NCBI GenBank assembly: GCA_021817785.1
Contig: JAKAFY010000005.1
Location: forward strand, 553 to 64,552
Source of the DNA: a bacterium
Lineage (GTDB): Bacteria; Patescibacteriota; Microgenomatia; UBA10105; UBA927
Direction of reading: 5' to 3'
DNA: 64,000 nucleotides
Shown here: positions 5,908 through 55,000 of the stretch, piece by piece
How positions within the stretch are numbered: position 1 is the stretch's first letter
How the letters are laid out: the number at the start of each line of letters is the position of its first letter
The notes under the pieces: generated by a model
Database searches by the model: none
What the model saw: only the letters and a program-made list of their open reading frames with translations
Told to the model about the DNA's origin: nothing
Position numbers and translations under genes: made by a program

Positions 5908-6246
5908 ATGGACGATTTTGATGTCAAAATAACACATATCCTTACGTTAATTGCTGAATCGTCGCTTTCTGATACGGAAAAAGCAGATATTTACGTGCAG
6001 CTCAATGTTGGGATGCGGCGTCTTGTATGGCCCATACTTCTGTCACATATTCCCCAATACGAGCTGGATGACATGATAAAAGACCCTAATACCATGACCA
6101 TGGAACGATATGTTACATGTATCCAATCCACACTTCAAAATCCCGCAACCCCCAAGGAAATCCATGATGAAATACTGGGCGCCCTGGGAGAAGTCGAGGC
6201 GTTGCTTGTAAAGCGACTTCCGAAGCCCCCTGCCCCTGCGTCTTGA
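5908..6246 (+). CDS. hypothetical protein (112 aa)
   Basis: Compact ORF immediately downstream of the previous gene. No recognisable motif. Confidence 0.4.
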   Translation: MDDFDVKITHILTLIAESSLSDTEKADIYVQLNVGMRRLVWPILLSHIPQYELDDMIKDPNTMTMERYVTCIQSTLQNPATPKEIHDEILGALGEVEALLVKRLPKPPAPAS

Positions 6247-6271
6247 GCAGAAGACAGAAACCGTGTATAAT
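6244..6271 (+). promoter_or_regulatory. sigma70-like promoter upstream of rpsA
   Basis: TTGAGC (6244-6249), a 16-nt spacer, then a perfect TATAAT (6266-6271), about 35 nt upstream of the rpsA start. Confidence 0.5.
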
Positions 6272-6305
6272 CCCCATATCCCTAAAGAAAGGCGGATATA
6301 CATGA

Positions 6306-26920: not shown

Positions 26921-27044
26921 TTTTTTGGTATAATTCCATAGTTGGGCCTGTAGCCCTGCCCGCAATGCTTCGCATAGCGATGCAGGCGGGTTAGTTGATA
27001 TATAGGTTCATACCTACTGTATTTGTGTTGATGAAGAAATTGTT

Positions 27045-27117
27045 GGGCCTGTAGCTTAGTTGGTAGAGCGCCGCATTCGCATTGCGGAGATCAGCGGTTC
27101 GACTCCGCTCAGGTCCA
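27045..27117 (+). tRNA. tRNA-Ala (anticodon CGC)
   Basis: Canonical cloverleaf folded by hand. Acceptor GGGCCUG/CAGGUCC with the G3:U70 Ala identity pair; anticodon loop UUCGCAU; T-loop UUCGACU. CCA is not encoded. Confidence 0.85.
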
Positions 27118-27187
27118 CAACATAATTTTTAATTTTAAATTTACAATTTTCAATGAAAATTAAAAAGTGAAAATTTCAAATTTAATG

Positions 27188-27517: not shown

Positions 27518-28070
27518 AAAACCAGTTTGTCTAAATTTTTTTGTTTTGTCAATCCCTCAGTTTTTTTGACAGCAGAATACGGGTAATTTATTTCGCCAAT
27601 TATCCCGGGATGGGGGAAGGGTAAGGAATTCTTTACTGAAACAAAAACGTATAGGAAATGCGAATCAGGGATTTTGATGATATAGTTAGCATATGTTTGA
27701 AATGGTCATAAAAACACGTGTTTATGCGCACTTTTTAAAAAATAAAGAACCGATTGCTGAGCTGTACTGATATAGTCGGGGATAGTTGTGAAAACCGCTC
27801 CTTGACAGTGCTTACTAGATATCATCATAGTAATAATACTGCACCTGATGTATGGGGGTTTGGGGACACCGGGTGATTTGTCTTTGAGGCGTGTACTTAT
27901 CTACGATAAACAAAGCAAAGAATACAGTCAATACCCCTGCTTGCCCGCAAGACATTGAACTATCCTCTCATTTGTATCACTTCTTTATAGATCGATATAC
28001 AAATAAATTTCACAACCGTATCGAATCCACTGAAAACGGTTTCGCACAAATCCTGCCGCTCATCCTGCTT

Positions 28071-31000: not shown

Positions 31001-34000
31001 AACCGGATCTATCGATATCAATATTGCGCCTGTACAATGGATGGATTCTGCATTCAACTGGATCCAAAGGCAACAAATTGCCCTCACCCCGTTCCGTCCT
31101 GGAGACTATGCGCAAAAAAATACGGAAGCACAGTTGGTGTTACTCGCAACTGATCCCGCAAAGCAAAAGGCTGTATTTGCTGCACTAGATCAAACCGCTG
31201 ACTACCGCAAATTTGCAGCCTCGCTGCATGCGAGCAATGTAGATCCACATGAGGCGTACATTACCCAACAATTGACGAAATTTTATCAGAATGAAGGATA
31301 TTTACAGAATGCTGGAAAATTTGCGCCAACAACGGTTGATAACAGTAAGCAAGATTACGTCACATTGGTGATGCGGGGAGATGTGAACGTTTCGTCTGCT
31401 GTTTCGTCCATTGGGTTGGGGAAGATGGTTGGAGGCGTGTATGCAAATACGTTAACTGCGGTAGGTGATACCGTATTAAGTCCCATACTTAAACTGACCC
31501 ATCTTACTCCGACAATAAAGGTTGCAAATCTTGTAAGTGGCGGTGTGACACCCGAGGAAAATCAGACAGCAGATACGGTTGTTACCGCCTTGATAAGAAC
31601 GAATAGTGCTGCATGGGATGCGTATGTGCAGCAAAAATCCAAAGATCCGGAGTATCTCGCCTGGGCGCAGAATAATCCAAAAGATTCATCGATAGTCGCG
31701 TTTGCCAAATGGCAGTACGCGCAATCGCTGGCGCTTACCGAAAATATGAAAGCGGGCGGATATGAGTTATCGAGTGCTCAGGATCTATTTACCAAGAGTC
31801 CAACGTGGCTAACCGACGGGGTGCTTGCCGGAAAAATAAATATCGGGGACATCAAATCCATCCTTTCTGCCAGCCAGCAATCCGTGACGACCGATTTAAA
31901 CCGCAACCTGACAATACTCGAAACAAATAACACCAACCTTCCGACTTCTTCGTATCAAGCACGCCGTCAAGCTGCGTTTGCACAGTTGCAAACAAGTGTT
32001 CTGAATGCCCAGGCAGATGCATTGGTAAAGGTATATCAGGAATCGCAAAATACCCCGGAAGTACTGGCAGCCCTGCAATCTAAACTTACCGCGCAGCACA
32101 TCACGACAGACCCACTTGTCTATCAGCAGCAGCAATTGAAGGCGTACTTATTAAATCCCGATACGACGTTTTTATTGGGAAGCGGAGGCACCACAGTTGA
32201 TGTGGCAGGGATCATGGATGGAACGTACGATATGGCCGCTGCCAGCCGTGCATATAACGACCTCAATAAACGTCCGCTGGAATCGTTTGTTTTTGCCATT
32301 AATAAATTTGAAAAGGGCTCGTATTTACAAGGTCAACAGTTGTTGAGTGATCCAAATTCTTCCCTCTATGACAAAGGGAGAGCGGTTGTGATGATGACGG
32401 CAAAGCCTGTGGGCACGGTGTTAATGTTGGCCGCCCCTCCGTTGCGAGTTCTTCAAATCGGCGTGAATGCAGTGACCGCGGCAGATGTGCTTGCTATCGG
32501 CGGTGAGGCACTTGGATTTCAGATGACGGGCTCCAGCGCGGCGGATACGGCGGTAGCCTGTACATTGCGTCCTGGTATGGACGCAGCCGGATGCGCGACA
32601 AATTTTGGCATGATGGTATTTGCCGGATGGAGCACCCTTTCGTCTGTCAACGCCGTGAATTCCATAGCTGAAACGGCGATGATCAAAAGCGGACAAAATG
32701 TAGGATTTGTTGAGCGATTCATGAATTCAAACAAGCTCTTGTCTGGCTTGGTGCCTGACGGAGATAAAGCACTTATTCAGGCAGCGGCATTGCGAAATGG
32801 TGTGATACCGGCGACCGCAGACAATATCGCTGCGCTTGAATCTGCGGTTGCAAAGGCATATGCGCCGGTGGCGCACAATGCATTTGCGGAAGGAGCACGC
32901 AATGCATTAGGGACGGCGGTGTTTGGGTCTGCGGCAATTCAAGCATGTTCGCAGGAAGGCCTGAATGCAGATTGTCTTTCCCGGGCAAGTCTCGCATTTT
33001 TGTCGTTATCCCGGACGATCCTTCCTTCTCAAGTGGTTTCCAATACGAATGCACTCGCTGGGCAGACTGTCATGCGGGCAGATCAGCTCACTAATGCCGC
33101 CCTTGCAGGGCTTTCGTGTAGTGCGGCGGCGTTGGGTAAAGGAAGTCTGGATGACTGTATTACCACTGCCATGATGAGCGGGATGACGTTTGCCGGAGAA
33201 GCAGTCCAAAAGGCTCAATCCAGCTCAAACGGCCTCACGCTAAAAAATCCGTTTGCTGCCAAAGAGCTGGCAATAAAAGATTTGTCGTTGCTTGAAAATA
33301 TGAAGGCTACCGATCCGCCGATTATCATGGACGGAACACCGGTGAATTTTCTTGATCGTACGGTAGCGGCAGATTCTGTTCGCGCGCGCTTAGTGCAAGC
33401 GACGATCGAATCAAGAATCATTATCGCACAGGGAAGTGCTTTGGCGGCGGGATTTAAAACATTGCCCGCAGCAGATCAGACGATTGCGCAGCATGCGGCG
33501 GTGACAGCTGGGGATGCATGGAATAGTTTGTTTACGGATACCGGTGCGCTCCGCCCTGGAGTTGCGGATCAAGTTATGGGTGCGCGTCAGGCATTAACCA
33601 TTGCCTCATCCGAGTTAGCACGGGAAACTGCGTTACTTACCGATCCCCGAAACGGAGCGCAACAGGCGGTAGATCGGTTATTGGGGGTGAGAAGCAAAGA
33701 TGCTGCCGCATTGGCGGACTTTCATACCGCGCGTGAGGCATATCTTGAGCTTGCCCGATCCGCGGAATACGATCCGGCAACCGGAGTATTACGCAATGGA
33801 GAAACGTTGGCGATTGCCGAACAACGACTGGCCCGTGCGGGCGAGACGCTTTCGCTCGTAAACGCATCGCGTGGGGAGATATGGTATGCCACGCATCTTA
33901 ATCAAACCCGTGATGCGTTGGCAGTTATCAACCGTCAGATTGATATTGAAACGCTTCAACAGCAATTATTATTGGATCAAGCCAAACTTCCGGATGTGCG

Positions 34001-37000
34001 GCGGCTTGCCCGCGAACAGGCAGATGCTGCCCAGATACATCTTCGTACACTCGAACAGACAAATGCTTCCCCGGAGGTGCGCGCTATTGCACAGGAAGCG
34101 CTGCGTTTGGCAACCGAACGGCTGTCTGCGGCTGAAGACGTCGCAACGCATATCCAAAATCCTGCTGACATTGCGTTATACAGAACAGAACGCGCCAATG
34201 CCTTGAGCACATTACAAGCACGGGCAGAAACAATACAGGGAGAAATGACGCTGTTAGCCGCAGGACAGAAGGCGGCACAAACGTTTGGCGGCAGGCTGGC
34301 GATCGCAGTACTGGGTCTTCCTGATCAGCCGACCCCGTTTGCGGAATTGATTGGCAGAACTCCCGAGCAGATCGTACAAGCCCGGACCACGGCGATTACT
34401 GAAGTAGGCAAGCGGTCGCTTTCCAATATCGAAGATCTTGTTAATGAAACGATTGATGTGATGCGCGCTTCCAGTGATGGGACGATAACGCGGGAACGGG
34501 CGATAGAAATCGCCATGGATGAATTGTCTGCTACTGATGCGAAAGGAAATACAAAGATCTATACTGATGCGCTCGCTCAGGCCAAGGAAGCATTAATGAA
34601 GCAGGGGATCACCAATGAAACAACCCTTGCCCGGGAATCCATGCGCATAGCCAGAACTGTTGCGGATCAGTTTGTCGCAAACAATGAGGCTATCCGCGCC
34701 GCACTGGCAAAAGGAGAAAGCCCTGATGTCGCGTTTGCCATCAGGCAGAGTACGGCGAGTAAAGTATCGACTGCGATCGTAAATTTTATAGAACAAAATA
34801 CCGTCGGCCGCATAAAGGTATACCAGATCCGTCAGGAAAATAAGGCCATGCTCTCCCAGCTTCGGGTTGCGCTCAAAGCCGAATACAAACCTTTGGTAGA
34901 AAAATTGGCAAATATCAATAATGACCGGGGTGGCATATCACTGTCGCAGGAAACCAAACCCGGCGCGAATGATGCATTGATCGCTTATGATACGCATAAA
35001 AGTGTAAAGCCCGGAAAATTAGTCGTCGATGACATCAAACTGACGGATACCGGAAGAAAAGCAGGACTGACCGAAAAGGATGTCACCTTCCTCAAAGATA
35101 ACCTTCAATCGATCCAGGGCGTTCAGGGATATACCGCCCATACGGAGCAAGTGGATTATATCCTGGCGTTTTTGGAATCTCTGGGAGACGGAAACGCCCG
35201 CCGTATATACGGCGCCGTCATGGGACTCGGGAAAACCGATTTCGTCATGCCGGCAACCACATTACTTCAGGCACAACTATCGGATCAGACGCAGGTGATC
35301 GTATTTCCGGAAGACAAACTCATGAACCAATACCTGGGCGGGAACTCACAAAAAATGCTGGATTTGTTTAAAGCAAAAATTGATCCCAAGGGGGAGGGGT
35401 TGGTGCTGGTGGTAGATCCGTCCAAGCCGCCGTCCGCTGAAGCCATCGCCAAGGCAAAAGTGATCATTACCACGCGTGATATCGCGTTTCTTCTGGATGC
35501 AACCGATGCATCAGGGCTTGCGATGCGCGCCAAATGGCGCGGGGCGTTTATCCAGTCGGATGAGGGACACTGGACGCTCAATGCGACGGAAAGCTTCCGG
35601 ACGAGTTTTGGAAAACAAACACAGATCATGCAGACGGATTCCGGTAAGATGAAACGCGTAGCCATAGCCAGTGTCGAACAATTACAAAGCGTCAGAGAAC
35701 TGATTGATCTTGCGAAAACGGGAAAACTGACGGACGCCGAGGTCAGGCGGAACGCGGATAAAACAGGAAGTTTTACGGACCCGACTGAGCAGGAAATTCT
35801 CCGTGAGTGGTTGCAGAAGAAAAAGAACGCAGGGCAGCTGCCCCCAGCCTTAGAGGCGGCATTGCAGGCGGGTTCCGTTGCGGATATGCGGGCAAAGATA
35901 ACGGAATTTTTTGATACCAACGCGTCTGCCCGCACCGGTCCGTTGGGAGCGGAGATTTCTGTAATCGGCAAGCTTGCAGATTTGTTTGCTGCAACCCCCA
36001 AGGTAGAGTATGGGGCTGCGTCGTTTGATAGAAACGGTACGTTGGTTGATATGATTGCGCCGCTGGATATGACAAAGGCAACCGGCCGCATGTACCAGGG
36101 GGAATTGGAACAATTACTGTACAACACCATCGGCGCGGAGATCGTCGGAAAGAATATAGATCTCACTAATCTTGTGTCAAATAGCCAAAGCCGGGACATA
36201 AACTTCGGGCTGCTTATGTTGGAAGCCAGCGGGTTTGCTATCTACACCGGTACTCCGGAGCTTATAGCGCCTTTGTATAAAAGTGCATATGGCATTGATC
36301 TGACGCAGTATGGATTAAACGCACATGAGGTGGTAACCAAACAAATAAATACGGGACTGGCGTCACAACAATCTCAGGTGTTTCAATCAACCGACGATGC
36401 ACTGACAAACAGACTCCATAAAGGAGAGCCGGTCGCAATAGTAAATCTCCGTGATACGCTCTACCGCACGAATGAATCCGCGTTTGAGACGATACAGCGT
36501 CATCTCGATACGGGTGATCGGCTGTATGTTGCGAAAGCCGCCGGGGGATTTGAAGAATATGTCCGTCTTGCGGATGGCTCTATGCAGAGGGTAGCAGTGT
36601 ATACGGATAAAACCGGGATAAATGCGAGTATCGCTAACCATATAACAGAGCCGATTGTCGTAATGTATGAATTCGGGGCACATACGGGTGTAGACGTGAG
36701 TCTGCCCGACAATACTCGGGAACTGGTGTTGACGGACACGAACTCCCGCATCAATGAAACCGTGTTTGATCAGGGGGTCAAACGCGTACGTCCGGATACT
36801 GCGTTAGTTGATGTCGTGCATGTGGGTGGAGACGGGACAATTGAGTCGGTGTATAGACAGTTAGATGTTCAACAACGGCAGGACATGGCGCTTGCGGAAG
36901 TGCAATTTAAAGAGACGCTGCTTCGCAATTCCGTCGATCAATTATTGTCCCGCTTGAATGCCGTACAAACGACAACTGCAGGCGGTATCACCCAGGGAGT

Positions 37001-40000
37001 GGATTATGCGGCACGTCTGAAAGCGCTGCAAGATCAATGGCAGGTAACGAAAGATCTTTCCTACGATTTGTCGACGCATAATATATCCGCACAAGATAAA
37101 TTACAGCGAACACTGGATCAAGTGAAGTCGATGTATGGGGAAATCTACGCGTCCATACAAAGCGACGTAACACTACGTGCCGCTTTTGCCGTATCCGCCG
37201 GGGATACAAAAGATCTTGCAATTAATTTACAACCGGATCCGAAAGGAGTGCATAAGCTTTCAGCGGTGTCGTCGCTTGCGGATGTGGTAACGTATATCAA
37301 CAAAAGTACCGACCCCAAGGTTATTGCCGATGCGGGGGTGACGTTCACCGAACGGGGGCCGTCTGCTGAAGCGGTGACGGCAGATGCACGCAATGTGCAG
37401 CCGACCAACATCATCGCAGATGGCGACGCAATAACTGCTGAAACGATAGCCGCGGAAAACCAAGCCCGTCAGGATGCGTTGGCTAAAAATTCCGGCAACG
37501 GAAATAATCCGACGTTGCCGGGCTCCGGCCCACAGACCCCCGGCGGTAGCGGCCCTGTACAGCCCGGTGGTGCGGGAGGTGGGCCGGCAAATAATGGTGG
37601 CGGTGGTACGACAAACACTGGCGGTGGGGGCGGGACAACACAATCAAACGGTGGTGGTTCCACACAAAATACCGGCTCAGTCAATACTGGTTCGAATACA
37701 ACCGGTCCGACGACCGTGTCGCAGATGACGTCGCAAGCACGGCAGGCAGTCATACGCGCTGCTGTAGACACATCGGGTACACAACCCGTGGTGCGTGCAG
37801 GTATTTCTCCGCAGCAAACGCTTCAAGCACTCGCTGCTGCAACGATTGAGGCGCAAAATCTTCGGAATAATCCATTTTCCCGCATACGAATATTACCGAT
37901 TGCCCGAACACTTGAGAGGCAGGAACAAGCGGAACTTGCCTTGGCGGATGCGCTTCAAGGGCCGGTACAAGCGGCGATTGAACAGGAACTTGGGGTAACA
38001 CTTTCGGGAAGCGGATTGCCCGCCATCGCGTCTGCCCGGGATAGTGCCGTAAGTTATTTGGCGGCGCTTGCTATAGGAGATGCTGATGTCGCGCAATCCC
38101 ATCTGACCGATTTAAACAAAGCAATTGAAAATGTGGCTGCAGCACAAGGGTCGGCATATACAGGGAGGCAAACTGCGGACATAGCGCCGCATATTGTTGC
38201 TGCATTTCTGCCGCCATCTGCAGTGACAGCGAAACCCATAATTCAAACCATATCAGGGCAAATCAATACGAATACGGTATCAAATCCGTCGACATGGAGA
38301 GCCACCATAGGAATTATGTGGTCGGGGATCAAACACTACGGCTTTAACCCGAATCCATTAACGCTGTTTACGATATTCGGCAGCACAACAAATCGCTGGG
38401 ATGTATTGGGACAGGTGGGGGGGTGGATAATGTTCCGTATCGCCCCGCTCTTTGTACCCGGTGGTCAGTTTGTCGCCGTACCGCTTTTGGCGTATGACGG
38501 TGTCCGATTGATAACTTATCCGTTCCGTGCGTTGGCCCGATTTATATTCACGCGTCCGATGATTCGGGATATTGTAATTGGGAAGTCCGTCGCCCAATTA
38601 GCACTCCGATGGCATCTGAATCAGACAATGCTCAATATTTTGGCGGGGAGCCGGAACGGATTTTTTGAAAGCTATGTCAACGCCGTTCCCGGTTGGCCGA
38701 AAGGGACGACATTTTTCAAGGGATTGATTGGGACATTTACGTGGGCGAGTCGTTTTCAGGCAATGTGGGGATACGATGCATTCCGGTTATTGCGGCGGTA
38801 TACGCAGCAGATCAATCATATCGCTGATACCGATATGCCACTTCACCAACTGCCGGTGACCCAGCCGAATTATTGGGACACAAACGGATTCCTACTGGGG
38901 TTTGTCCCCCGGGCACTGGTGAATGCAACCCCACGGAATAATCTTTTTGGATATTTATTGACCCGATGGCTCGTACCCATCGTTATCACGTCTCTTGTAG
39001 CGCCTCTATTAATGTTGATACCGGTCGTAGGTCCGTACATTGCCGTCATGGTGGTTGCCATCATTATTTCCATGCCGCATTCATATGATTCCCATAGGTT
39101 GTGGCATGAGGGAGGATGGCAACATGCCGATATCTGGAATACAAAAAAAGGTCATATTACTCCATGGGCATCGTGGGGCGCGACCGTGACGATTACCGTG
39201 CCCGCGCCGCAACAGTTTTCGAAGGGAGTATTGGAAGCAGGACACACGTTGGTTCGCGGGGCAACGATAACGGTTACCCGTCGGGACGGAAGCGTGGAAA
39301 CCGCAATACTGGATACCGTATCCAATGATCGTATCGCAGCAAATAATTCCTGGACCATCCGGTCTGCTGCAGATAATTCCGTCATTGGCTGGGTAACACA
39401 AGGAGATATTACGGTAAATATGTCACCCGCCATAGCATCACAGCCCGTTGTCCCAATACCGTCAGGAGGTCTGAGCGCTGCTGATATCGACGCATTTGCG
39501 GAAGCGCTCACGGGTCCACAGGTTCAAACCTTGTTCCAGCGTGAAATCGCATTTCTCCCGTTAGGCTGTTCGGAGTGTACTGATTTCGTAAAACAGAGCA
39601 TAAATACACATCTTGCTGCTGCGCAGCAAAAGATTGTGGCTGGAGATCTGGCGGGTGCGATTGCTCAACTGGATCAAGCGCTTCATGAGATAGATATGCA
39701 TGTCAAAAATCACACCGGCGGTCCGGTAAATACGATGCTCTTTAATCTGGTGCGCTATGTTATATTGCGTCACCAGGCTGCGTTGTATACCGCTCTCGGT
39801 GATACAAAACATGCAGCCGATGTCATGGCAATAGCCCGTTCGTACCGCGTAAAAGCGCTTATTGAAATAGATACTAAAATCCATGCGTATAACGCAGGAG
39901 ATACGCGGTTTGAAGCGATCAATGACGCACTTTCGTACTATACCGCGCAACGGGAAAAAGATTTCAGTGACATTCTTTTGATGCAGGACGCAAACCAAGC

Positions 40001-43000
40001 TCAGCAAGCGCTTGATGATCTGACGGCGGAGATTTCAAACAGACCGACGAACCCGACCTTGTGGGATCGTGTTACGGCCATGGCTGCGCGGATTCTTGTC
40101 AAACAGCCGGATCCGCTTGCCGGATATGCCACTGAAATTGCGAATGCAAACGCACATATAGCTGCTCGTCGAAATCCTCCGGTACGTCACGAAGCCAGAG
40201 TGGGGGATACGTATCGGTTTGCCCCGAGCGCGTACCCAGCAAACGTCAACGCATTAACGGGTGCTTCCATCGGAGGAGACACGACAAGTAAAATTTTGAT
40301 TCCGGGCCTGGGTCTCGGACTCTATGCATCCTTTGACAATGGCCGTTGGCAATTACATCACCAAGATCGTTTTAAATCGGGCGTCTTTATAAATACAACA
40401 CCGGTCCCTGTAAATAAGCAAGGGCCATTATCCTCTGGTGATACGATCGTCATCGGGGACGTGCGGCTTGTGGTGACTATAGATAGCGACAATAGCCTGA
40501 TGATTCATATCGAACAGCTTGTTTCCGGCCAGCCGGCGCAACACCCGGTTGTTCATAAAAATGACACACAGCATTTTGCCGCAAACGATTTTACAACACC
40601 CGACCAGGTTGTGACGCTGGGAATCAATATCTACTCGACAATCCGGTTTGATCCTGGTCAGGCACCAAGTATCCAACCGCATCATGCGCATGTCTTCAGA
40701 AATTCCGGTTCATGGATTATTACATCTGCGGATACACAGGCTACCGGCACTATCCGACGACCTGATGGTTCTGAATATCCATTACAAGGTCTCACGGGAT
40801 TGCATGACGGCGACATCCTATACCTTGGAAGCGACGTCGTCATAACGGTGAACGTTGACCCGACAACTCATGACCTCACCTTACTTGAAACGACCATAGG
40901 CGATAGCGTCGAGGTGGCACGGAATAAGACAGAAGCGCGTGCGAAGCTTCAGGCGATTATTGATCTTGGAAAGAATCCTGCAGGCTACGACAACGCGAAA
41001 TTATCAGCGTATGTTTCCGATCTGCAGACGGTTGCCGATGGGCTTGCACAGGCGGATCAGGCCGTATTTGGCACAAATACCACCGCATTATCCGGACAGT
41101 TGCATCAGGCGGCGCTTGAGCTCGGGCAGCTTGTCGTCGGGTATCATACACGCGTGTACAACAACAACGCTCCGTTCTTTGATTTTAGCCGGGTGCAGCA
41201 GATGGAAGATGATGTGAATACCATTCCGGAGCTTACGAAGGAAGAAAAAGCGCAGGTGTGGGACGGTTTCGAAAAGACGGTGTATCGGGATTATATCGGA
41301 TCGGTGTACGGCTCGATTGCCGGGATGGAAACCGAAATGTATGGTTCTTCACACTCGCTCCCGCCGTCGGACCTCGATAGCATGTCTCTGGCGGATTTAC
41401 AGAGAGAAAAAACAATGGCGGAAGGGACTTTTGCGGTGACAAACGACGCATATAAAGAATTTTTACGGGATAAGAATCGTTTTGAAACGAATCGGAAAGC
41501 GATACAGGCAAAAGCCCGGGCAATGGCGGACGCAATGAACACGGCGTTTGCTAAAGGTCAGATGACGAAAAATATTCGTGTAGAAGTAAGCCAGGAAGGA
41601 ATAATTCAACTTATTCCAGCTGATAATAGCCCGCTATTAAGTCTTCGAATTGGACTAGACACTCCGCAGGAATATATATCAGATCAAAGAGATGATGGGG
41701 CGGTTCATATAATTTTAGGGACAACCGGATTATCGGTGGCACCAGCAATACTCAATATTGAGTCAAGAAATGTGGGGTCTGGTGTCGGAAATGAAGCGTT
41801 GTCGATCATAGAAACGGTTGTTAAACGTGCAGGATTCGGTGGGATGTTGGTGCAGGGGAATACATCAGTATTGTCGTTTGGTTTTTGGTCAACAAACGAA
41901 TATTGGGTGGCGGATACAAAGCAAAATTTGGATGAGTTGCAACGGTATAGCCGTGCACGTCAAATGTACAAAATATTCGGTAAAGCATTACCGAAGCCAA
42001 CACAAGAAGTATCACGACGTGAGCAGATTAATCGATTACAGGCACAAATCTTTGGATGGTTGGCGCTGGCTCGTAGTATTAATATGTCATCCGACGAATT
42101 ACGTACGAGCATGTCTCCGGATGATTTACAAAAGTTGGTAATTGGAAAGACCAATATCTATATCGCGGGAGCGCTGGTTCCCGACGGTCTGCCGTTGGCA
42201 TGGCAGGAGCCGATTATTCTAGCGCTCACCGATCTTGAAGCCGGCGTGCCGCCGCTGGGCATGTACGATACCTCTGTACGCGTCCTGAACCGTCCGGAGG
42301 TCCATAATGCGCTCATCCAGCTTATTGGAGCAATCAAAGCCCAAACCGATGGCGGCGGCGAATATCTGAAAGCACTTGGGGAGGCAATCGTTGCCGGCGC
42401 CAACAATCCGAAAGAGATGGCAAAATTGCTGAATAACCTTACTTCGTATTGGACTACCCCTGCGAAAATACTGAAAGACTCGTCGTTGCCCGGGCGGCAG
42501 CAATTTATCGACACCTATGGGCCCGTCATCGCCAAAGGCGAGTCAGGCAATCAGTTTGCGGATGCGCTCTATACACATTACAGTGCATTGAAAAGCGAAG
42601 AGCAGGATGCTCTCGCGGCGTTATTCGCGGATGATGGAACAATGCGTACGCCGGTTGCGCACGCAATACAAACGCTGAAGCCATCGTATGCCCAAAAACG
42701 AAGGGAAGATAGCCTGACGGTGGCTGCGCGCGACGCGTTGTTGCCGGAGATCAAAACGCTTCATGCGTTCACCTTTCTGTCCGACGATGAAATAAAGAAC
42801 GAGATACCGACGGACATCACGAATCAGGTGGTCGAGGGTGCGTACGTCATGGATACGAACGTGAGCGGGGAGTTAAGCGCGCTTGCGCCGCAGCAGCAGG
42901 CTGTGGTGCGCAACGGTTTCGATGTGCGCGCGGATATCGTACGCGACGCGTGGGCAAAAAGCGATATCAGCCCGTTCGGCGCACTTTTTGATACGAATGT

Positions 43001-46000
43001 GCTGTTTAGCTCCTTGGTGTCGCAAATAGCCGATCTGCACGAGGCAGATGCCGTCAGTCAGTTCCGTGCGGCACTGTCTGCATTCCCATCGGATTTGTAC
43101 GCATCGATGAGGGCACGGGATACCGTGAATAAACCGGATGCGTATCAAATACAAGCTGAAATACATGCGAAGTACGTCGCCGCGACAATACGGGGGAAAA
43201 TAAGTAGTTCGTTCCCGATGCAAGAGCAAAGATTGTTGGCGTTTTTGAACAACGGATTACTTGAAAACAACAATCATCCCCCGTTCCCCAATTTGGAATC
43301 GTTATTGAAGTATCTGCTGATCGGTGACGTGCCGTCGGATCAACAATTCGACGAAGCGTCATTACGGGAGCGCGTTGCCTCCATGGATACCGGAGTGACG
43401 GGCCCGCTTATGGATACGCTTGCCAAAGCGATACAACAGATGCTTCCTCTTCTTGACGGGATTGTTGCCCGTTCCGAGCCGCTGCCCGCCGTAAATATAG
43501 CGCCGGGTACGACCACCACGACGCATGTCGCGTTGCTCCGTGCGATGCATGACTATAACGACAATGCGCCGCGTTCGATGCGGTTTACGCCGGCATCCGA
43601 TTTTACCCTCCGGCCGATAGAAGATCAGGTGAACGAGTTTCTGACGTTTGTCGAAAACCGCACAGGTCAGTGGACGCGTCAAACCTCCCCACGGGAGGGG
43701 AAAGTGGGGGTAGCAAATACGTTTAATGGAATGACGTTCGCTGAAGGGAAGGCCCCGTTAATCATCGGCACGAGTAAATCGAATACGATTTGGTTTGATT
43801 CAGCCGTCGCAAAATCGGTAGCAGAGAAGCACGCGGAGATATATTTGGAACTTCATTCGGATAGTCCAAACAAGCTTTGGATTCGGGCTGTAAGCGACAC
43901 TACCCCGATTACCATTTTCGATCATCGTGGTGAGAAACTACGGACTCAATCTGGTGCTGTACTCGGAGATGGATATACGATACAACTCGGATCAGACGTT
44001 GTACTTTCCGTAAAATATGACAATTATTCATATCAGTTCACTCTCACCCCGACGAAAGTAGGGGAGGCGATTACTGCGGATGCCCTTGACCAACTGCTTG
44101 CCAAATTGATCCCCGGGTATGACACGCAGAAGCTGCCGCCGGAACAGGTTACGGCGATCCGTAAGGCCGTCTACGGCTTGGTACCGGCAGGAGCCGCAGC
44201 AGAAAGCCTGGATGCCGCGCTCAAACAGCCCGCGGTGCAGGAATTCTTAACCACACTGCAGACGAATATCAATGCGCTGACCAAAGCGCAGCTTCCCAAT
44301 GTGCAGGCGATTATCGGTAATGTCCAGACGGACTATCAGACCGTCCTTGCCCGTCTACCGATATTTATCCGAGTGTTGGGGTCTGTAAATATTGCGGATG
44401 TGAACAATGTGACTATTGCACTGACTTCTATGAACGCTGCCATACAGGTTGCGGAAACAAATCCACAATTATCTGCTTTAGCGGTGGCATCGTCGGACCG
44501 GAACAGTTTTGTGGAGGATCAATCGGTCATAAATTTGCTTCGGGGAATCATTTTGAATGCCTTTGGTACCCACGCTATCATCGTTTCAGAGCTATCTCCG
44601 GATACGTATAGCTCTCTTGTTACCTCGCTAGGGGAATATGTTTGGTCACTTGCGGTTAAAACGCCATCTCTTGATGGATTTTGGGATGCTGATAGAGGTG
44701 CAATCCTTATACAAAAAGCATTAGACGAAAAAGATAATCGGACACCAGTATTACCGGAATTTGTTGAGCTCACCAATCAGGCAGTTGGATCAGATAAAGT
44801 GCTTTATATGGAAGTATATGCGGAAGAAATTTTGACGAATCGCGAAATTTTGTATTTTTTGGATTTGGCACGAACCAGAATCCTCGCACAGCAACAAAAA
44901 TTAGAAAAGTATAACGCAGATTGGAGACGCCTACAGCTTGCCGCAGAGCAGGATCCAGCTATCAAAATTGGCAAAGAATTAGAAAAATTATATCCGTTAG
45001 AGTCGAACGCTCTCATGATGCAGTCAGCGGGTGGATCACTTCAGCTTGACGAAGCCAATAGGGCTATTTCGTATATCACCGGCGTACCGATTGAAGAGGT
45101 GCAAAAAGGGAATTACCCAAAGGGTACAAAGCCGGATTTGACGCCGGAGGTGATACGTTCACGGCTCGTTGCTCACGGCGATTATGATCATGTTTTGAGT
45201 GAAACTGAAATAGGAAGACTGATGATAGCCGAGGATGAGAAAGATCATTACGATATCATGCGTACCCGTACACCGAGGTTTGCGCCGGTTGGCGGTACAT
45301 TAGATCAAAATCCGCTGGTAAATTTGCTGTTTGGACTCACCGGCAAACGGTACCGTATCCCCGCGGATAATGCGGCACTGACGGAGGAGGATGTCGTCGT
45401 CGCATTCGAGCGGAATTACGATTTTCTCGTGCAGGATTACGCTCTTCCGACACTCATTTCATCAAGTGGAAAGCCGGATGTATATTTCAATGCGCTGATG
45501 GTGGTCGCGCAAGAGAACGGAGTAGAAGTAAAACTTGTTTCCGACCCCTCGAATCCTCAACCGCAGGCCCGGGGTCTGTTCCATGGCACGCCAACAAATA
45601 AAACGATCTATATTCCGACATTGGATAGTAATTCCAACAGGGAATTAGCGCATGAATTGGTCCATGCGCTGCAGTTTATTAAACATCCCGGCATGTCCAG
45701 ACTCATGCGCGAATTTGAGGCATATCTGATATCGGATTATCCGAAAAATAGAGTACCAAAAGTCGGATATCTGAGGAAATTTTTGCAGATTATTGCGGAC
45801 ACTGTCGGTCCAACATATGTTGCCGTAGGACAGCCGATTCCGTGGGAATTTCAGCCGGTTGATGTTTCCAATAGTGCACCGGAGGGATCGGATATATCGA
45901 CGCCAGTTGCTCTTGACCAACTACTTGCAAAGCTGATTCCGGGGTATGACAAACTGAAGAAAGATCAACAGACTGCGGTTCGGAAAACGATATATGGGCT

Positions 46001-49000
46001 CGTTCCGGGAATTAGTTTTGGAGAAAACATAGATGATGCATTGCAGCAACCCGCGGTGCAGGAATTCTTAACCACGCTGCAGACAAATATAGGCGCATTG
46101 ACCAAAGCACAGCTTCCGAACGTGCAGGAGATCATCGGCAATGTCCAGACGGACTATCAGACCGTCCTTGCCCGTCTGCCGATTTACGCCCTGGTAATGA
46201 GTTCGGCGAATGTGACGGATGTCCCGAAAGCCCTTATTGCGGCACAGAAAGCGATCGATGAAGTCGAGCATAGCCCACATCTTTCCGTTGGAGCGCAAAC
46301 CGCGGCGAGCGCCAGCGTGTTTACAGACGATATGAAATTTTCAGTGACGGAGAATGTAATGCGTGCATCTCTTGGATCTCAAGGGTATACGGGGACAGCA
46401 GAAGATATTGCATTGATACATCAGCAGTATGGTATCTCAGACGACGAGTTGAATACGCTGATAACCGCTTTGTGGACGTATGTATGGAATAGAGAGAGTC
46501 GAGAAATCCAAATTCGTGATCAGTTGAATAGCATCCTTTCGGATGCCAGTCCGGAATTTAAGGCATTACCTGAATTTGAACGCGACGACATTATCGAAGC
46601 ACTGCGTATTTCTTACCCCGATAATACAACACTTGCCGCGGTCGCGACTGATTTTTCCGAATCCGGCAAACGGGCGAAAGAGTTGCATGCGTTAGTGACC
46701 TTGTTGGCACAAAAGACGTCGATAAACGATTATGTGTTAACCAGTATTATGTTGCATACGCCTCAAAATCCGGAAACATGGAGCACGTTGTACGATACAT
46801 CGATAAAGGTCAGCGCACTCCTAGAACAGGTTTCGGAATCCAATAGACAGGACCAGTCGAAACAAGCGTATCAAGTATTATTGCAGGCGATCAAATTGAT
46901 CGGGAATGATCAGACAGTCTGGTCAGTGATGCAGCGTGAAGCCGATCGTTTTATAAACGTCATCGCTATTTTAGCTGCAAAGCGTTCGGGGGGCATTACT
47001 CCCAAAGATGCACAAGCGCTGTATACTGCTCTGCGTATTCCGGTCGCGCAAAAAACGAAATATGATGGTTTATTAAATAAATCGGATTTGTCAGTACTGG
47101 GCGCTCCTGAAGCGGATTCGAAGTGGGCGGCATTTGATGCATTAGCGGTTGTGTACTTCCGCAAGGTTCCCGAAGCTCCATCCGAAGACCCACGTGTGCA
47201 GGAAATTCGCGGGCTATATGGAAGATTTGTACGATCATTATCGACGGTGCAGGGAGTGTACGTGATAAAAATGTCCAGTGAATGGGCAGCTGTTTTAAGT
47301 CTTTTGAAAGGCGGGTCTATTGTTTATGTTCCGAACGGAGCGTTGGATACAAAGTTTGAGCCGAAGGCTGTTGTCGATGCCGCAACGTTCCAATCCGGAA
47401 TTCGTGAAGCGGTGGATTACATGAATTTTCCTTCCAAAGAAGCGTATGCGAGAGCAAAAATAACCGTATGGATATTGGACAAAATGTTGTCCGTGGAGCA
47501 GTATTATGCGTCGAAGAATACGTTGAGTGTGCTGCAACAAAAAAGCGGAGAACTTGGCCAGATTGATCAACAAATAAGTGCGTTGTTGCGGACCGATCTT
47601 AGCTCTGGCACGACGCAGGAATCTTTGCAGCAGATATATGCCGCCTTGTACGCACTTCTGCCGGCAGATAGTGGTTTTCCGGCCGATGATACGAGTGAAA
47701 TAGACGCATTAATAAGCAGCATAAATACTTTTGGACAACCGAAAGAAGTCCGTCAGGTTGTCACTCATCTTGCGACAACATTCGGCATTCCGGATGAACA
47801 GATCAAACAGGTTGTCGATCAGGTGGTGGCTAATCTTAAGGATTCCACGGCTGCCGGTACGGTTCCGGCCTGGAAAGCGATAGAGGATGCGCTGAATGCA
47901 AAGCCGAAGTTTGCGAAAGACGTTTTACCGCTTATAAAGAATCAATTCGCAGCGCTTCAGAAGGCGCAAGCGGACGTATCCCGAATACAGGCGTTACTCA
48001 CTATCTACGCCCGGACGCTCATCTCCATCCCGCTCGGGAAGATAGCTGAAGCGCCAACGGTCTTATCGCAGGAACAGAAAGCGATTGCAGCGCTGGAAGA
48101 ATCAAGTTCCGGGTGGGTGTCGGATGCGACGACTATCGATGAATTCCTCGCGGACAATACACGTACCGGTACCACCAACGAAGTCCGCATTCAAACAGGC
48201 CTCAAAGATACCAAGATTCTCCAGCCGAAAGATGACAAAACCCCGAATGCGTTCGGCATAAGTCTCACAAATTACACGCGTATCGTTTCCGATATAGGGC
48301 AGTATTTGTGGAAGAAGGGGGAGGATGTCCGCACGAAAGCGATTCTTGCGATGGTAGAACCATATGATGCCCAGCGCGATGCGTCATACATCTCACGAAT
48401 CGAACAAGCGGCAAAAACGAACGGATTGCAGATTAAAGTAGTTGGATATATAGCAAAAGGAGCGCAAGGATATGTTTATTTAGTGCAACTATTAAATGCA
48501 AAACAAGTCAACATACCCGAATATGTAGCAGCTAAAGCCGACGATTTGGCACAAAAGCTAGGTGTAAATGATGCGCCGCATGAGTATGAGCTTGCCGGAA
48601 AATTACGGCAGGCAGAACAAACCGGCGAATTCGACATCAGCGACCCCTCGAAATTATATACAGTTGATCCATATGCAGTTGACGCAAAGAATAAAGTGCT
48701 ATTTGAGGAGCTGGTTCTAACGCAAAAATGGGATGATGAAAGTCAAGACGCGAAGATTTCCCGCGCAATGCAATTTGGTCATCGTACGTATTTAGTTCGT
48801 CAAGCTGGTTTCTATAATCAGGATAAGATCGGTGATTATCTGGCGGATATTAACAATAAACTTCATTTCTTTGATTCATCTTCGTATGGTACAAATCCGA
48901 AACTAGCGTTAGATGCAAATAGCCGGTTTATTACGCGCATTGTTGAAGCGCTCTATCCCGCCTCCGGTGCGACCGTAGAAAACATTTTTAGCGCACAATT

Positions 49001-52000
49001 CACAAATGATACCAATAGGTTAAATGTATTGTTGCAATCCCGACTTTTTGTTTCTCTACCGAAGATTATTCAGTACAACATACTTCTATTACTCGGAAAA
49101 ATATCAAGCAACTCGGGTCAGAATCTAAATAGTGCCGCAGCATTTAAAGAATTATTACTGGACATGCTTTCAGTTACGGCGAATAACCACATAGACAGTA
49201 AATTCATACCTGCTGAGTTGCATGGTGAATATCAGCAACAAGCGATCATTCACCGATTTTCTCGATTCGATAATGAAAATATTCTTGGTATGGCTGGAAT
49301 CACGATTGAGCAGGGGGCAAATGCGGAAGATAAATTATTAATATCGAATATCGTTCAAAGCCCTTCGCTTAATTTGATCTATTCATGGCATGATTTTAAT
49401 GTTGGAGTACCATACGAAAAATATTATGCTGGAATATTTATCAATCTGACGACACAAGAAAAAATAGATCACATTATTGGACTTGATCTTTCGCAATTTG
49501 ATCTGTCTCCAGAGGATTATGCTGTCATGCGCGTCATCCAATGGCACGCACAATATGTGAGGTATGGGTTTATGATGACTGGTCATCCTGATGTGAATAA
49601 TGCTTCAGCGATGAATCCATCGGAAAGCGCAGTGGCGCAACAACTCCGCACGTACGGCGTCATTAAAGTTCTTAAAAAGATGGGATCTCGAATGGAATTA
49701 GAGGCTGCACAAGGCCACCAACAGGCGGTTGATAAAGAATTATTGCCCTCCATGCGGGCATTCCAGGATGCCTTCGTTCAAAATATTTTTGGAGGGGATA
49801 AGCGCAAATTGAATAAACAGGATTTTCCGCTTACGCCCGAGCAGGTGAAGAAGGATATCGATAGTTATGTGCCAAACACAGCCAATACCGTTTCTACCCA
49901 ACTTACCGCGCTTATTTCCGATGCCACGCCGCTTAAAACCGATGAGCAGAAGGCGCAGATCAAAGCCGTGGTGGATGCGACTCTTGCCGAAATGGATGCC
50001 GTCACATTGCCCCAGGATATCTCGGCCCTGAAACCGGCAATCAGTGTGATCTACGGCGACGGCACGTCTTTGGTTCAACTTCCGGATTTCCTGAAACGCT
50101 TGCCGGTATTCATCCGTGAGCTTGTAGCAGCAACTCCTAAAGAGATGGAAAAATTATTGATCGGAACCAATACTGCAGTCACCGCGATGAAAAATTTTCC
50201 GATTGGTTTTAATAACCCGGCCGGAACGACAGAGGATGCATTCGTCAAAGACGTAAAGAATCGAACGTTTGTCCGGGATATGCTGGTAGACGGACATCTG
50301 TATCCTGCAAATTATTCCGGCATACCGATTACAGATGCCATTATTGAGCAAATACATACAGATTATGGCCTCACATCAACAGAATTCGACGGCGTTGTAA
50401 CGGCGATTCTTCACTATCTCTACACACCGACGGAGGAGGGTGGAACGGAAAGTATTCTTGGCGCGTCGCTTATTAGTCAATTTGGTATTACGGCTGATGC
50501 GGATAAACAAGCTGTTCAGAACTCTTTACGTGATGGCCTTACCGGCGTGACGCTTTCCGGGCCATTGGTTACTGCACTTTCGGATCCAAAGAGTGCGCCG
50601 TCTCAATTTACCGGAACAGTTATCAAAGAGCTTCGTGCAGACGGCGCCACAGCCCCGGCTATATCACGCATTTTGCCCACGATATTGTGGGTCTACGATC
50701 ATGCGGCCGCCGACAAAAAGCCGCTCGTGGCAACTACCCTGATCCCAAAAATTAATGAGGTTGATGCCGCAAACGCGATTATGTGGAAAACGTTTGTGGA
50801 TGGAAACGCAACCGAGCAGTATTTCATTGATACAGGAAGTGTTGTGGTAGGTACGTCCTTTGACACGGTTCTATCTTCGTTATTGCCCGATCAGGCGGCA
50901 GATGCACACTCAAAAGTGGTAAACGCCTATTTGCGGTACGCTCGGATCAAACACGGATCACGGGTGACGACGGAATTACAGTCATTTTTGGGTTATGTAA
51001 CACAACCGGAACATGTCCCGATGCCGCCCACCGCTCCCCAGGTATTTAAAGATATGCAAAAAACGGTGGAGGAATCCCCGTCACAAACAACAGCATATGA
51101 AGTGCAGGCAATAAACCAGCTTGCTTCGTTATACCGGACTGACCTGACGGTGAAGCGTACAGGTGGCGCGGAGGGGAAAGCACCTATGGTAGAAGTAAAC
51201 GGGAAGGAGCTTCTTCCGATTGCCGGACATATGTATCGGTACATTTATAAGCTTGATGATACACATGTGTTGAAGTTTGATATGGGAGGGCAAAATGAGA
51301 GTGAATTGGAACTAGAGGCACTAAATGATAATGTCCGGGCCGTATCCCCGATACTCGGATGGGGGATTGCATCGGATGGTTCGGTATTTCTTATAGAAGA
51401 ATATAGCGATGTCGTGATAAGTCAGTCTGACAATACCCAGCTTCGTGGTGATATACAGGGAATTATTGAATTATGGAATAGTGCGTACGTGAACAGTTCC
51501 GTAGCAGAACAGCAGGCCTTTTTGCATGAATATGGATTGCAAAGCGCAGATGAAATCAATCAGCTCGAGCAGATTGTGAAGGTAGACGAACAGATACATC
51601 TTGATGATTTTGCCATGGCTTCCCAAAATAAGCCTGAATCCGGGCAAATCGGACGCGGGCGGATAAGCCATAGATTGCAGCTCATAGATTTCGGACAAAA
51701 TAGCGTTCGGTCAGGCTATGCTCCCTATCTGCGGAGCTTCACCCATCTCCAGGAGATAGTGGACAAAATTGTAGCGGACAGAAAATCCGGCTCCGTCGGC
51801 GGGGAGGTCTCTGCGTTGGCGACACAGGCGTGGGATGCAAAAAACGAAGCGTGGGTAGATGCTGCCATAGAAGCTCTATCGCATGAAGGGTTTACCGACT
51901 GGAACGGGCTTCTTGTCTCATATTTTAGAGCGTATCGTGGTCCCAAAGATGAAATGCTGACTCCAAAACAGGTGGAGGATGCAGTAAATCATTACGAGCC

Positions 52001-55000
52001 TACATTTTTAATCTCCATACTCCTGAAGGCGGATCGAAATCAGGAAGTGGTTGACCCGCTATTTGCCGATCTAACGCGACAGATACGACTCTTACTCCCG
52101 TTTGATAAAGAGCCTGATGTACAACTTGCTACCATGCGCATGGTTCTTACGATTCTTCATGGAATCAAAGCCGGGGCGTTTCCGGCAGAGACGCTTGTGC
52201 GGTTTATCGGTGAAGCGGACGCCAATGTAAGTGGCGCATTCCGTGTGTTTGCATCATCCATCAAACAGCCTTCCGTACAGAACGTATTCATGCAGATGTC
52301 TGATGTAGTGGATGAGGCAAGTTCATTCCAGGATGAAATCACCATGCAAATGGCCATGTTATTTGAAATTGTTCGGTCAGGGGATATAGCGCATCTGCCC
52401 AAAGTGGCCACTACATTGCCCTCTGTATTGCAAAAATATCAGACGCGCACAGCAGGAGTGCCCATCGGTGATAACGCAGTAGGCTATGGCGCTGCCATGA
52501 CAAAAATACACACCCAGTTTGGACCAGATACTTTGAGGATGCGGGATGCGTCGCTTGAAATCATGCTCGTTCAAACCAATGAAAAGAAAGAGCGATTGGA
52601 AAACATTATCGATGACATGATCCGCGAATTGGGAGTACAGTCGAATAACCCATCGCAGCGGAAGCGGTATCAGCAGTTGTTCGTGAATATTTTGAGTTTT
52701 ATGTCGAGAAGTGATCAGCGAGCTACAAACCGTTTGAGCGCGAAAATAGCGCACGAAGTTGAGTTGCTTGACCATGCGTTAAACGATACAGTCGAGTCGC
52801 AAAAGATACTTGCGGAGATCGCAGTAGATGCGAAACCATTGCTTCCAACATTGTTTGCTACTCCTGCAGGAAGATCAGAAGTACGGGAAGCAGTGATACA
52901 ACAAACGGTTGATACAGTATTGCGCCGAAGGCTTCCGCTTGCCGCGTCGGATGATGAGGCAACGAAAAAAAATCCAACATATCCCCGATATACATCTGCG
53001 TTGAGAGAGTGGCACAACGCCGCATTGTTGTATATAGAGCATCAACATGGGGCTCCATCAGAAGCTATCGCAGTGCTACATGCGTTTCGGGATGCGGCGC
53101 ATGCAAATATCACAAATCCTCGGGATCGAGCACTTCGATTGATTCGGGAAGCGTATACAAAACGAAATAGTGACCCGGTCATATCTAGTGCCTTGACGCC
53201 GAAAGAACAGGATTTGTTGTTTGGTCATTATCTTTATTATTTATTTAACCAACAGGATCGTATCGCACAGTTCCCGACACTCGATAACGTAATAGGCAGA
53301 GATAATCTGGCGTTTGTGGGGAGTGTACGGAGAGATGATACTACCCAAGCAAACGCATTGGCTGCCAAACTCAAAACATCGCCTCTATTGTTGCAGCTTG
53401 ATAAAGATTTGGGCCCGATCGTCGCGGAATTGCAGGCAATAAAAAGTGCCGACACGACGTCGATATATGCCAACATAAAGTTTGGAATGGAGCAGCACTT
53501 TTCCATGACGGAGCGGTATGACCTCATTGTAAACCTGCTTGATTCGGATCAAGCGATATTTGATACGGCGATCAAATGGTTTACCGATAAAGGATTTGCT
53601 CATGTGAAGGAAGATTTCGGGACATGGGATGGCGGTGGAAGTAGTACGACAAACGCATCAGGTCATTTGGCACAGAATGCTGCTCCGGCGGCAAATGATA
53701 TCAACGCGCAAATTGCGAAGTTTGTGGGTGATATACAGGCCGCAGGGTACCCCGCAAACTATCCCGTGGTACTAAATGGAGTAGTACAGGATAAGTCCGT
53801 TGTTTTGAAGATTGATGTTTCTCGATTACAAGCTCAGCTAGAAAAGATAAGTACGGCGGCCAATCAAAGCTTTGATATTACGATTTCGTTAGGGAATGCT
53901 GAGGTGCTATTTGGAAGTATTGCTCGGTCAGGCGGCGTTACACGAATCAATCCCTACGATCGAAGTGGCGCGCGTACGATATCAAATGTAAGATTCGTGC
54001 TCCGACAACATATACAGTCTTTAGATCTTGCTCTTCGTGATAAGGCGAATGTGGATTTAGCTGTACTCAATAAGGTTTTATACGGTTTTCTTAGTAGTCA
54101 GACCGGCCCGACGGTGACGTTGACGCAGGACCAAGTTCTCCAGCTTATCGATGCCATGCGAAGCGAAATGAATCTTCAGGATGTGCCGGGACCTGTTAAA
54201 TTCGCCCTCGGAGCAGTCGGAATAAACGACAAAAGCATGGCGGCGATGACGATTGAGCCGAAGTTTTCAAACGGTATATGGAGTGTCGCAATACAGTTGG
54301 CAAAATTTAGCTTTACCGCTGAAATTCATACGAGCCAGACATCCGATCAGGGGTTTGAGATAGCGGGCTTACCCGGCGCGCTCACGCGTTTTGTGACGCC
54401 GGCAGAGATGATGCGAAGCATAAACAAACGACTGGCCAGGCACGGCGTTTCACGTCCCATTTCAAAACTTGATATTCAAAAGGATGGGAGTATCGTCGCC
54501 ACGTTTGAAGGGCAACAATCACAGATCCCTCGAGCACAGGGACAAGTACGGACCGGATTTGCCATATCGCTTGGCGTGGCTGCAGCGTATATCCTCAAAA
54601 TTCCGGTTGTGTTGACGGCGGCACACGCGGTACAGTCCATACTTATCGCTGCTGGGCATATCACTATTCCGATTTATTCATGGTTCCCGGATATGCAGCA
54701 TCAGATTTCCGCACTGTTCCAACCAGTGACGCTCCAATACGCTCTTTCTCTCGTAGGTATATCGGGAGCACGACCAGCTCCGTCGAAGGTTCCTGACATA
54801 CTCTCCGGTCCGACGCATACGATGTCTATGGCGGATAAACGCCAGATGCTTTCGCTTATCCCGCAGGGATTCCTCCAGGCGATCGTGACGCAGGTGTTGC
54901 GGAAACCGGGAGCGACATTTGCCAATTTCCGTGCCACGGTAGATCGGTATCGCTTTGTGACCGTGATGTTTGATGACCATCGCCCTGGGTTTGCCGCGTT

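Follow-up and report, generated by a model that had tools for sequence, protein, structure and literature searches.

The stretch analysed here, referred to as the window, is 64,000 bp of contig JAKAFY010000005.1 (assembly GCA_021817785.1, positions 553 to 64,552) from a bacterium of the Patescibacteriota (Microgenomatia; UBA10105; UBA927). It contains most of one giant gene (Table 1). The same gene was called complete at 13,064 amino acids (aa), with its start at window position 28071, on the 73.6-kb ENA contig ERZ27237541:k141_2559337. Within the window, no stop interrupts the frame between the one at 27885 and the window end, so that at least 12,037 codons are open from 27888 on. The encoded protein carries two copies of a module of about 170 residues with an HExxH motif. 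The module is probably a zincin-type (gluzincin-like) metallohydrolase domain of a family that is unmodelled in Pfam-A and NCBIfam, with maturation of the giant protein as its preferred role.

The giant gene and its two modules

Translation of 45501-45900 on the plus strand gave ...SNSNRELAHELVHALQFIKHPGMSRLMREFEAYLISDYP..., and the peptide matched the one quoted in an earlier sequence-only reading of this DNA exactly. That reading had placed HELVH at 45651-45665 and EFEAY at 45711-45725, about 15 residues apart. Both positions were reproduced. The second His of HELVH and the first Glu of EFEAY are separated by exactly 15 residues in the same frame of the giant gene. The reading had also labelled the module copy 1, and the label proved correct as a homologous second copy has its HExxH at 60693. 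HExxH occurs exactly twice in the in-window part of the protein, at 45651 and 60693. About 5,000 residues, including predicted membrane segments, lie between the two modules.

Copy 1 and copy 2 were 29% identical over 82 aa by blastp (E 7e-6). Alignment with MAFFT stretched the similarity to about 170 residues, with at least 40 identical positions. The pattern common to both copies is HEL[VI]HA[LI]Q-x4-PG-x-S-x4-E-[FY]-EAY. All residues found to be invariant in the family (H, E, H and the first Glu) are retained in both copies, as is the Gln, and copy 2 is the nearer of the two to the family consensus. No third copy was detected within the window by a hidden Markov model (HMM) of the 85 external family members. 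An antisense open reading frame (ORF) at 45645-45920 lies wholly within the giant open frame and was taken as spurious.

Table 1. Features of the giant gene and its modules in the 64,000-bp window.
Feature	Position	Strand	Remarks
Giant gene carrying the modules	28071..64000	+	Called as 13,064 aa; extends some 3.3 kb beyond the window
N-terminal hydrophobic segment, predicted signal anchor	28050..28106	+	Kyte-Doolittle; Pro/Thr- and Cys-rich region follows
Predicted transmembrane helix pair (hairpin), upstream of copy 1	38943..39068	+	Hydropathy only, crude prediction
Internal repeat A (about 190 aa), upstream of copy 1	44082..44648	+	50-60% identical to 45909-46490
Zincin-like module copy 1 (about 170 aa)	45366..45887	+	Envelope of the match to the external-only family HMM (59.2 bits)
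HELVH	45651..45665	+	Two predicted zinc-binding His and catalytic Glu; H5861, E5862 and H5865 in the called gene
Gln of HExxHxxQ	45672..45674	+	Q5868 in the called gene
EFEAY	45711..45725	+	Next predicted helix; E5881-F-E5883-A-Y5885; first Glu is the candidate third zinc ligand
Internal repeat A' (about 190 aa), directly downstream of copy 1	45909..46490	+	Pairs with 44082..44648
One or two predicted transmembrane helices, between copies 1 and 2	54546..54662	+	Hydropathy only
Zincin-like module copy 2	60267..60935	+	HELIH 60693-60707, EYEAY 60753-60767; external-only HMM 112.2 bits
Weak class I S-adenosylmethionine (SAM)-methyltransferase-like segment	63408..63710	+	Sub-threshold Pfam Methyltransf_31, _11, _12 and _23, E 5e-4 to 1e-2

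The protein family sharing the module

When 310 aa around copy 1 were compared with 5.8 billion proteins in a word-indexed search, no homologue was found, and an exhaustive profile search was therefore needed. Hmmsearch with a profile of the two copies against 1.84 billion representative proteins gave 173 proteins at E<=1e-3, 36 of them at E<=1e-10. The best match, P0001, is 99.98% identical and represents this gene itself on a cut contig. HExxH was present in 149 of the 152 external domain matches and had been lost in the other three. The Gln of HExxHxxQ was kept in 147 of these 149 domains and the 15-residue spacer to E-x-E-A in 135. In an alignment of 87 sequences the sole invariant columns were the H, E and H of HExxH and the first Glu of E-x-EAY. 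This Glu, present in 87/87 aligned members, is a candidate for the conserved third zinc ligand that the sequence-only reading had proposed to look for. The Gln, the second Glu, the Ala and an upstream KYxLP were nearly invariant. The family consensus around the motif is lEHELIHAlQxxxYPxMPIExxEYEAY. The view of the sequence-only reading that this is a genuine HExxH...E module of zincin or gluzincin type is supported by the 173-protein family and its invariant residues.

The HMM built from the 85 external sequences alone still gave scores of 59.2 bits for copy 1 and 112.2 bits for copy 2, so the family result is not circular. Both copies match this model and carry the invariant H, E, H and E. 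Scans of genome and metagenome contig collections with the copy 1 peptide returned nothing. The conservation of copy 1 rests on its family membership, as these scans gave no orthologue from another species.

Most members are stand-alone proteins of 200-260 aa (about 240 aa). Only 4 of the 105 short members carry an N-terminal hydrophobic segment, for which reason the stand-alone members are probably cytoplasmic. Many mid-size and large members consist of an N-terminal membrane anchor, a Cys-rich region and the module, which is at the C-terminal end in most of them. No further transmembrane segment is predicted before the module in these proteins, so an extracellular module is to be expected. 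Ten mid-size members contained no Pfam domain whatsoever. The module is also conserved in other giant proteins. P0016 (5782 aa) is colinear with the giant protein in three regions and its single module aligns with copy 2. Further very large carriers are P0057 (7335 aa), P0122 (5297 aa) and P0126 (4099 aa), and one genomic locus (L025) is an open frame of at least 4130 aa with the module. A 1524-aa ORF at another locus (L030) is 35% identical to the copy 2 region over 350 aa. Three large members were scanned and gave only sub-threshold PRTase-CE and CHAP (cell-wall hydrolase) signals. These were located at residues 2878-2971 of P0015 and 2908-3017 of P0126 and are faint hints of a role in inter-organism conflict or at the cell wall for such giant proteins.

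Distribution was assessed by a scan of one genome per GTDB species using a 13-member sub-alignment as query, which gave 34 loci. About two thirds were labelled Patescibacteria or candidate phyla radiation (CPR), comprising Paceibacterota, Saccharibacteria, Uhrbacteria, Shapirobacteria, Woesebacteria, Dojkabacteria and 'Patescibacteria group'. Nine loci were labelled 'uncultured Gammaproteobacteria' or 'Pseudomonadales' (L007, L011, L012, L019, L020, L025, L029-L031) and three only 'uncultured bacterium'. The gene order of L007, L011, L012 and L020 matches that of Shapirobacteria and Woesebacteria loci. The Gammaproteobacteria and Pseudomonadales labels are probably wrong, as at least four of these loci share gene order in this way. 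The family has so far been found almost only in genomes labelled Patescibacteria/CPR. One member was located at 6001-6432 of L028, from a genome labelled Nanoarchaeota (DPANN). A binning error could account for this, or the gene may have passed from one ultra-small episymbiont lineage to another. Searches of IMG/VR viral contigs, phage records and plasmids gave no relatives. Marginal tblastn matches of copy 2 to 'transglycosylase/tail fiber' genes of Pseudomonas jumbo phages were rejected as spurious, having no HExxH on translation.

No library model described the module. Hmmscan against Pfam at E<=10 gave no match for either copy, and no Pfam-A or NCBIfam 20 model reached its curated cut-off on either copy. 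No PADLOC model or curated family matched either copy. The only library match below E 0.001 was a weak one of the PHROG 'metallo-protease' phrog_87 to copy 1 (E 3.6e-4). Other weak matches were MXAN_6640_HExxH (E 0.21) and, to copy 1, the Hvo_1808 family surface protein (NCBIfam NF038145, E 0.042). The latter was the most frequent weak NCBIfam match in the family (9 of 87 members, best E 2.9e-5). Its scores are far under the 200-bit cut-off and only about 70 residues of the 432-position model match the module family, so that the kinship is putative. Weak Pfam matches over the 87 members at E<=5 were M91 (5), eCIS_core (5), SprT-like (5), BSP (3), M78 (3), DUF6782 (2), M76 (2) and Tox-MPTase4 (2). 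Almost all of those common to several members belong to zincin families, with no single family predominating. Sequence comparison with solved structures gave nothing relevant using either the 2-sequence or the 87-sequence profile. In a profile search of an annotated collection all 68 matches were without a precomputed Pfam domain, and those with a name were called 'hypothetical protein'. A literature search for the family motif strings returned only irrelevant papers. With good but not full confidence the members would form a separate family within the zincin superfamily that Pfam-A and NCBIfam do not model. Large multi-domain proteins with an HExxH zincin domain are already known, and what is new is the family itself. 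Its definition would annotate hundreds of proteins and would add to the zincins a new family in which the His-to-Glu spacer is very short.

Predicted fold, proposed activity and alternatives

The structure of 45384-45887 was modelled with AlphaFold2 using the 87-sequence alignment. An earlier run with the two copies as the sole alignment reached a predicted local distance difference test score (pLDDT) of 61 and was not used. The later model had a pLDDT of 85.6 and a pTM of 0.81. It consists of helices 2-18 and 31-44, strands 48-51, 65-68 and 73-77, helix 82-100 with HExxH at 90-94, helix 106-122 with E110 and E112, and helix 127-147. The pLDDT of the HExxH helix was about 90-97. E110 of the module corresponds to E5881 and is four residues into its predicted helix. 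This order of elements is that expected for a minimal zincin, with the invariant Glu predicted to lie on a helix that returns beside the HExxH helix. The best match in the PDB by Foldseek was IrrE (3dti; E 0.12, probability 0.72), with MATCAP, ACE2 and YbeY lower. The top list from BFVD (E 0.01-0.2, probability up to 1.0) was made up mostly of IrrE-N-terminal-like, SprT-like, 'metalloprotease' and 'peptidase' entries and included one 'large polyvalent protein associated domain'. An absence of similarity to zincin folds had been named in the sequence-only reading as evidence against the module; the predicted topology and the Foldseek lists point to minimal zincins, with none of the matches at E<=1e-3.

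In the proposed mechanism one zinc would be held by H5861 and H5865 of the HExxH helix and by E5881 of the following antiparallel helix. E5862 would be the general base activating a water bound to the zinc. The active site is probably shaped by the near-invariant Gln, together with the second Glu and the Tyr close by. The chemistry would most likely be peptide-bond hydrolysis. The preferred role is maturation, in which the module would release functional parts by cleaving the giant polypeptide or its bound partner proteins. This role is favored by analogy with two systems. The first is the zincin metallopeptidases (MPTases) of polyvalent proteins of phages and conjugative elements, where a small zincin is found at variable positions in very large proteins and autoprocessing has been proposed (PMC5512222). 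The module is likewise a small, probable zincin embedded in a very large protein, and a polyvalent entry is present in the Foldseek list; the likeness consists of these two points, with no link shown at the sequence level. Unlike the polyvalent-protein MPTases the module is chromosomal, near rRNA, rho and radA. The second system is the giant proteins of Omnitrophota, with C39 and S8 peptidase domains that were suggested to cut the giant protein (bioRxiv 10.1101/2023.11.21.568195). There too, the peptidases are built into giant proteins that span the membrane and have few domains, in bacteria that are ultra-small and depend on a host. However, they are of other catalytic classes and folds and from another phylum, with no homology to the module.

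A more specific form of the maturation role is that the two copies, possibly in different membrane-delimited segments, are built-in proteases making the parts of an apparatus for interaction of an episymbiont with its host. This is speculative and was considered rather doubtful. The two modules are the only strong functional handles on the 13,064-aa protein and so are the natural entry point for experiments.

Several points weigh against the reading of the module as a zincin-type maturation enzyme. Self-processing is argued purely by analogy. Most of the family consists of soluble stand-alone proteins of about 240 aa, which must have substrates other than a giant host polypeptide. No candidate cleavage sites were identified. 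The predicted His/His/Glu geometry was read from helix positions only. Foldseek gave no match at E<=1e-3 against the PDB (best E 0.12) or BFVD (best E 0.011), and TM-scores were 0.34-0.47 for the named matches with 0.47 as the maximum of the BFVD list.

The same enzyme may instead act in trans, on surface or host (prey) proteins at the contact between episymbiont and host or on cytoplasmic substrates, and not on the giant protein. As a role this was judged about as likely as maturation, and as a full explanation it is a possible alternative with some weight. Most family members are stand-alone and only 4/105 of the short ones have an N-terminal hydrophobic segment, so the basic activity of the family must be in trans. 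In many of the mid-size and large members the architecture of anchor, Cys-rich region and module suggests an enzyme displayed outside the cell, and one large member has the weak CHAP signal toward its C-terminus. Giant surface proteins of CPR bacteria and Omnitrophota are thought to serve in host attachment or attack (bioRxiv 10.1101/2023.11.21.568195; PMC8080830). However, no substrate, secretion system or toxin-immunity context was found for a role in trans, and the upstream neighbors in the window are housekeeping genes. The topology of the giant protein is also a hydropathy-only prediction, with one or two helices at 54546..54662.

It is unlikely that the module has a zincin-like fold and is not a peptidase, being instead an enzyme that hydrolyzes another bond, or a zinc-binding or other binding scaffold. 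Peptidase chemistry is assigned to the family members from their sequences, the structural matches are weak, and DUF4157, which looks alike in its motif, has no proven activity yet (PMC8213781). Against this, the three putative ligands and the general-base Glu of HExxH are all invariant in 87 diverse sequences, a pattern that marks retained catalysis. The three external domains without HExxH indicate that loss is possible but rare.

Another explanation is that the stand-alone members are proteases linked to DNA repair, much like SprT or IrrE, and that the copies in the giant protein were co-opted from them. A stand-alone gene was located between ruvC and ruvA-ruvB in 6-7 of the 34 loci (L007, L010, L011, L012, L013, L015, L020), with the match at about 6001-6700 in most of these. 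IrrE-like and SprT-like proteins also head the Foldseek lists. IrrE/ImmA (Peptidase_M78, 3dti) and SprT-like proteins share with the module a small core of helix, three-stranded sheet, HExxH helix and ligand helix, and the third ligand of IrrE is a downstream Glu. The third ligand of SprT, however, is His and not Glu. The structural matches were not significant (E 0.01-0.1; TM-score 0.34-0.44 for the leading ones), and only the new family has the HExxHxxQ-x12-E-x-EAY signature and the N-terminal KYxLP region. Neither copy matched PF06114 (M78) or PF10263 (SprT-like), and matches in the family stayed below the gathering scores and were rare (3 and 5 of 87 members, at E<=5 only). No DNA-binding domain was detected. 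The ruv synteny was found in only 7/34 loci, which have several other flanking genes in common and may be a single lineage (only three are labelled Microgenomates). This origin was considered quite improbable.

The sequence-only reading had compared the module to DUF4157 (PF13699, now named eCIS_core), the PVC-metallopeptidase domain of extracellular contractile injection system (eCIS) toxins and polymorphic toxins. The likeness of form was real: both copies have the HExxHxxQ helix (HELVHALQ and HELIHAIQ), as does the DUF4157 consensus (AHELTHVVQQ), both domains are presumed zincins, and both occur on long multi-domain proteins, DUF4157 being known also from long proteins with long linkers (PMC8213781). 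It was confined to the active-site helix. The HMM check that had been suggested gave no PF13699 match in either copy at E<=10, and over the 87 members there was 1 match at E<=0.01 and 5 at E<=5, all sub-threshold. M91 and SprT-like were matched as often (5/87 each) and M78 in 3/87. All 120 PF13699 proteins listed carry the precomputed PF13699 annotation, and 50 short ones (<=135 aa) were aligned. Their domain reads ...DFSxVRVHTD...AxAFTxGxDIVFGxGxYxP...GRxLLAHELTHVVQQ. The R, H and F of the upstream block (DFSxVRVH ... AxAFTxGxxIxF) are invariant in the 50 proteins and the block has no counterpart in the new family. Conservation stops right after HExxHxxQQ, with no conserved E-x-EAY helix. In an hhalign comparison of the new family with these proteins, the alignment was confined to 26 columns, those of the active-site helix (probability 62%, E 7.5e-5). 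In eCIS toxins DUF4157 is N-terminal (PMC8213781), whereas the modules are internal, at residues ~5800 and ~10800 of 13,064. No eCIS genes were visible in the 28 kb upstream of the giant gene. Membership of DUF4157 was rejected on the negative HMM scans, the 26-column alignment, the internal position and the lack of a visible eCIS context, and it is highly improbable. The resemblance is at the level of the motif, given the absence of an HMM match, the helix-only alignment and the missing upstream block.

A chance HExxH has next to no likelihood: very long proteins do accumulate short motifs, but 2000 residue shuffles of the giant protein gave a mean of 0.14 HExxH (P(>=2) = 0.011) and never HExxH-x15-E-x-E (0/2000), and chance is further refuted by the two mutually homologous copies, the scores of both with the external-only HMM and the 173-member family with its invariant catalytic residues.

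The giant protein and its locus

No Pfam match is on record for the 13,064-aa called gene. Pfam scans of the in-window part gave nothing but the weak methyltransferase signal, which is the only other enzyme-like signal there (Table 1). The genomes of CPR/Patescibacteria are tiny, yet about 39 kb is spent here on one gene nearly without recognizable domains. In Vampirococcus, a CPR bacterium, the ten longest proteins are of 1,392-4,163 aa (PMC8080830), and the giant protein is about three times this maximum.

The called start, ATG 28071, is inside the N-terminal hydrophobic helix (ILPLILLMVFALSTFLIVW). The in-frame upstream starts GTG 27891 and TTG 27972 would take in the whole helix. As the called ATG cuts into the helix, the true start may be earlier. 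The first 1000 residues contain 35 of the 47 Cys of the in-window part. The predicted transmembrane segments are near residues 3700 and 8900 (counted from nt 27888, 61 above the numbering of the called gene). Copy 1 is flanked by the two predicted membrane segments, and copy 2 is C-terminal to both. The side of the membrane on which copy 2 would be found hinges on whether there are one or two helices at 54546..54662.

The 190-aa repeats on either side of copy 1 had no relatives among 150 listed family proteins except the same gene (P0001). A weaker pair of repeats was found at residues 4242-4411 and 5291-5451 (also counted from nt 27888).

The window opens with the 3' end of a 23S rRNA gene (1-268) and a 5S rRNA gene (476-592) within 1-592 on the plus strand, which places the locus in a bacterial chromosomal context. 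The genes upstream of the giant gene encode an S1-like protein, radA, glycosyltransferases, a DUF2298 membrane protein, rho and a LysM-M23 protein. Two tRNA-Ala genes are directly before the giant gene. This gene content, taken with the distribution of the module family, points to a CPR source for the window. A transfer-messenger RNA (tmRNA) called by ARAGORN at 26944-27118 on the plus strand overlaps tRNA-Ala(CGC) at 27045-27118. The tmRNA call looks like a false positive, as Rfam gives only the tRNA.

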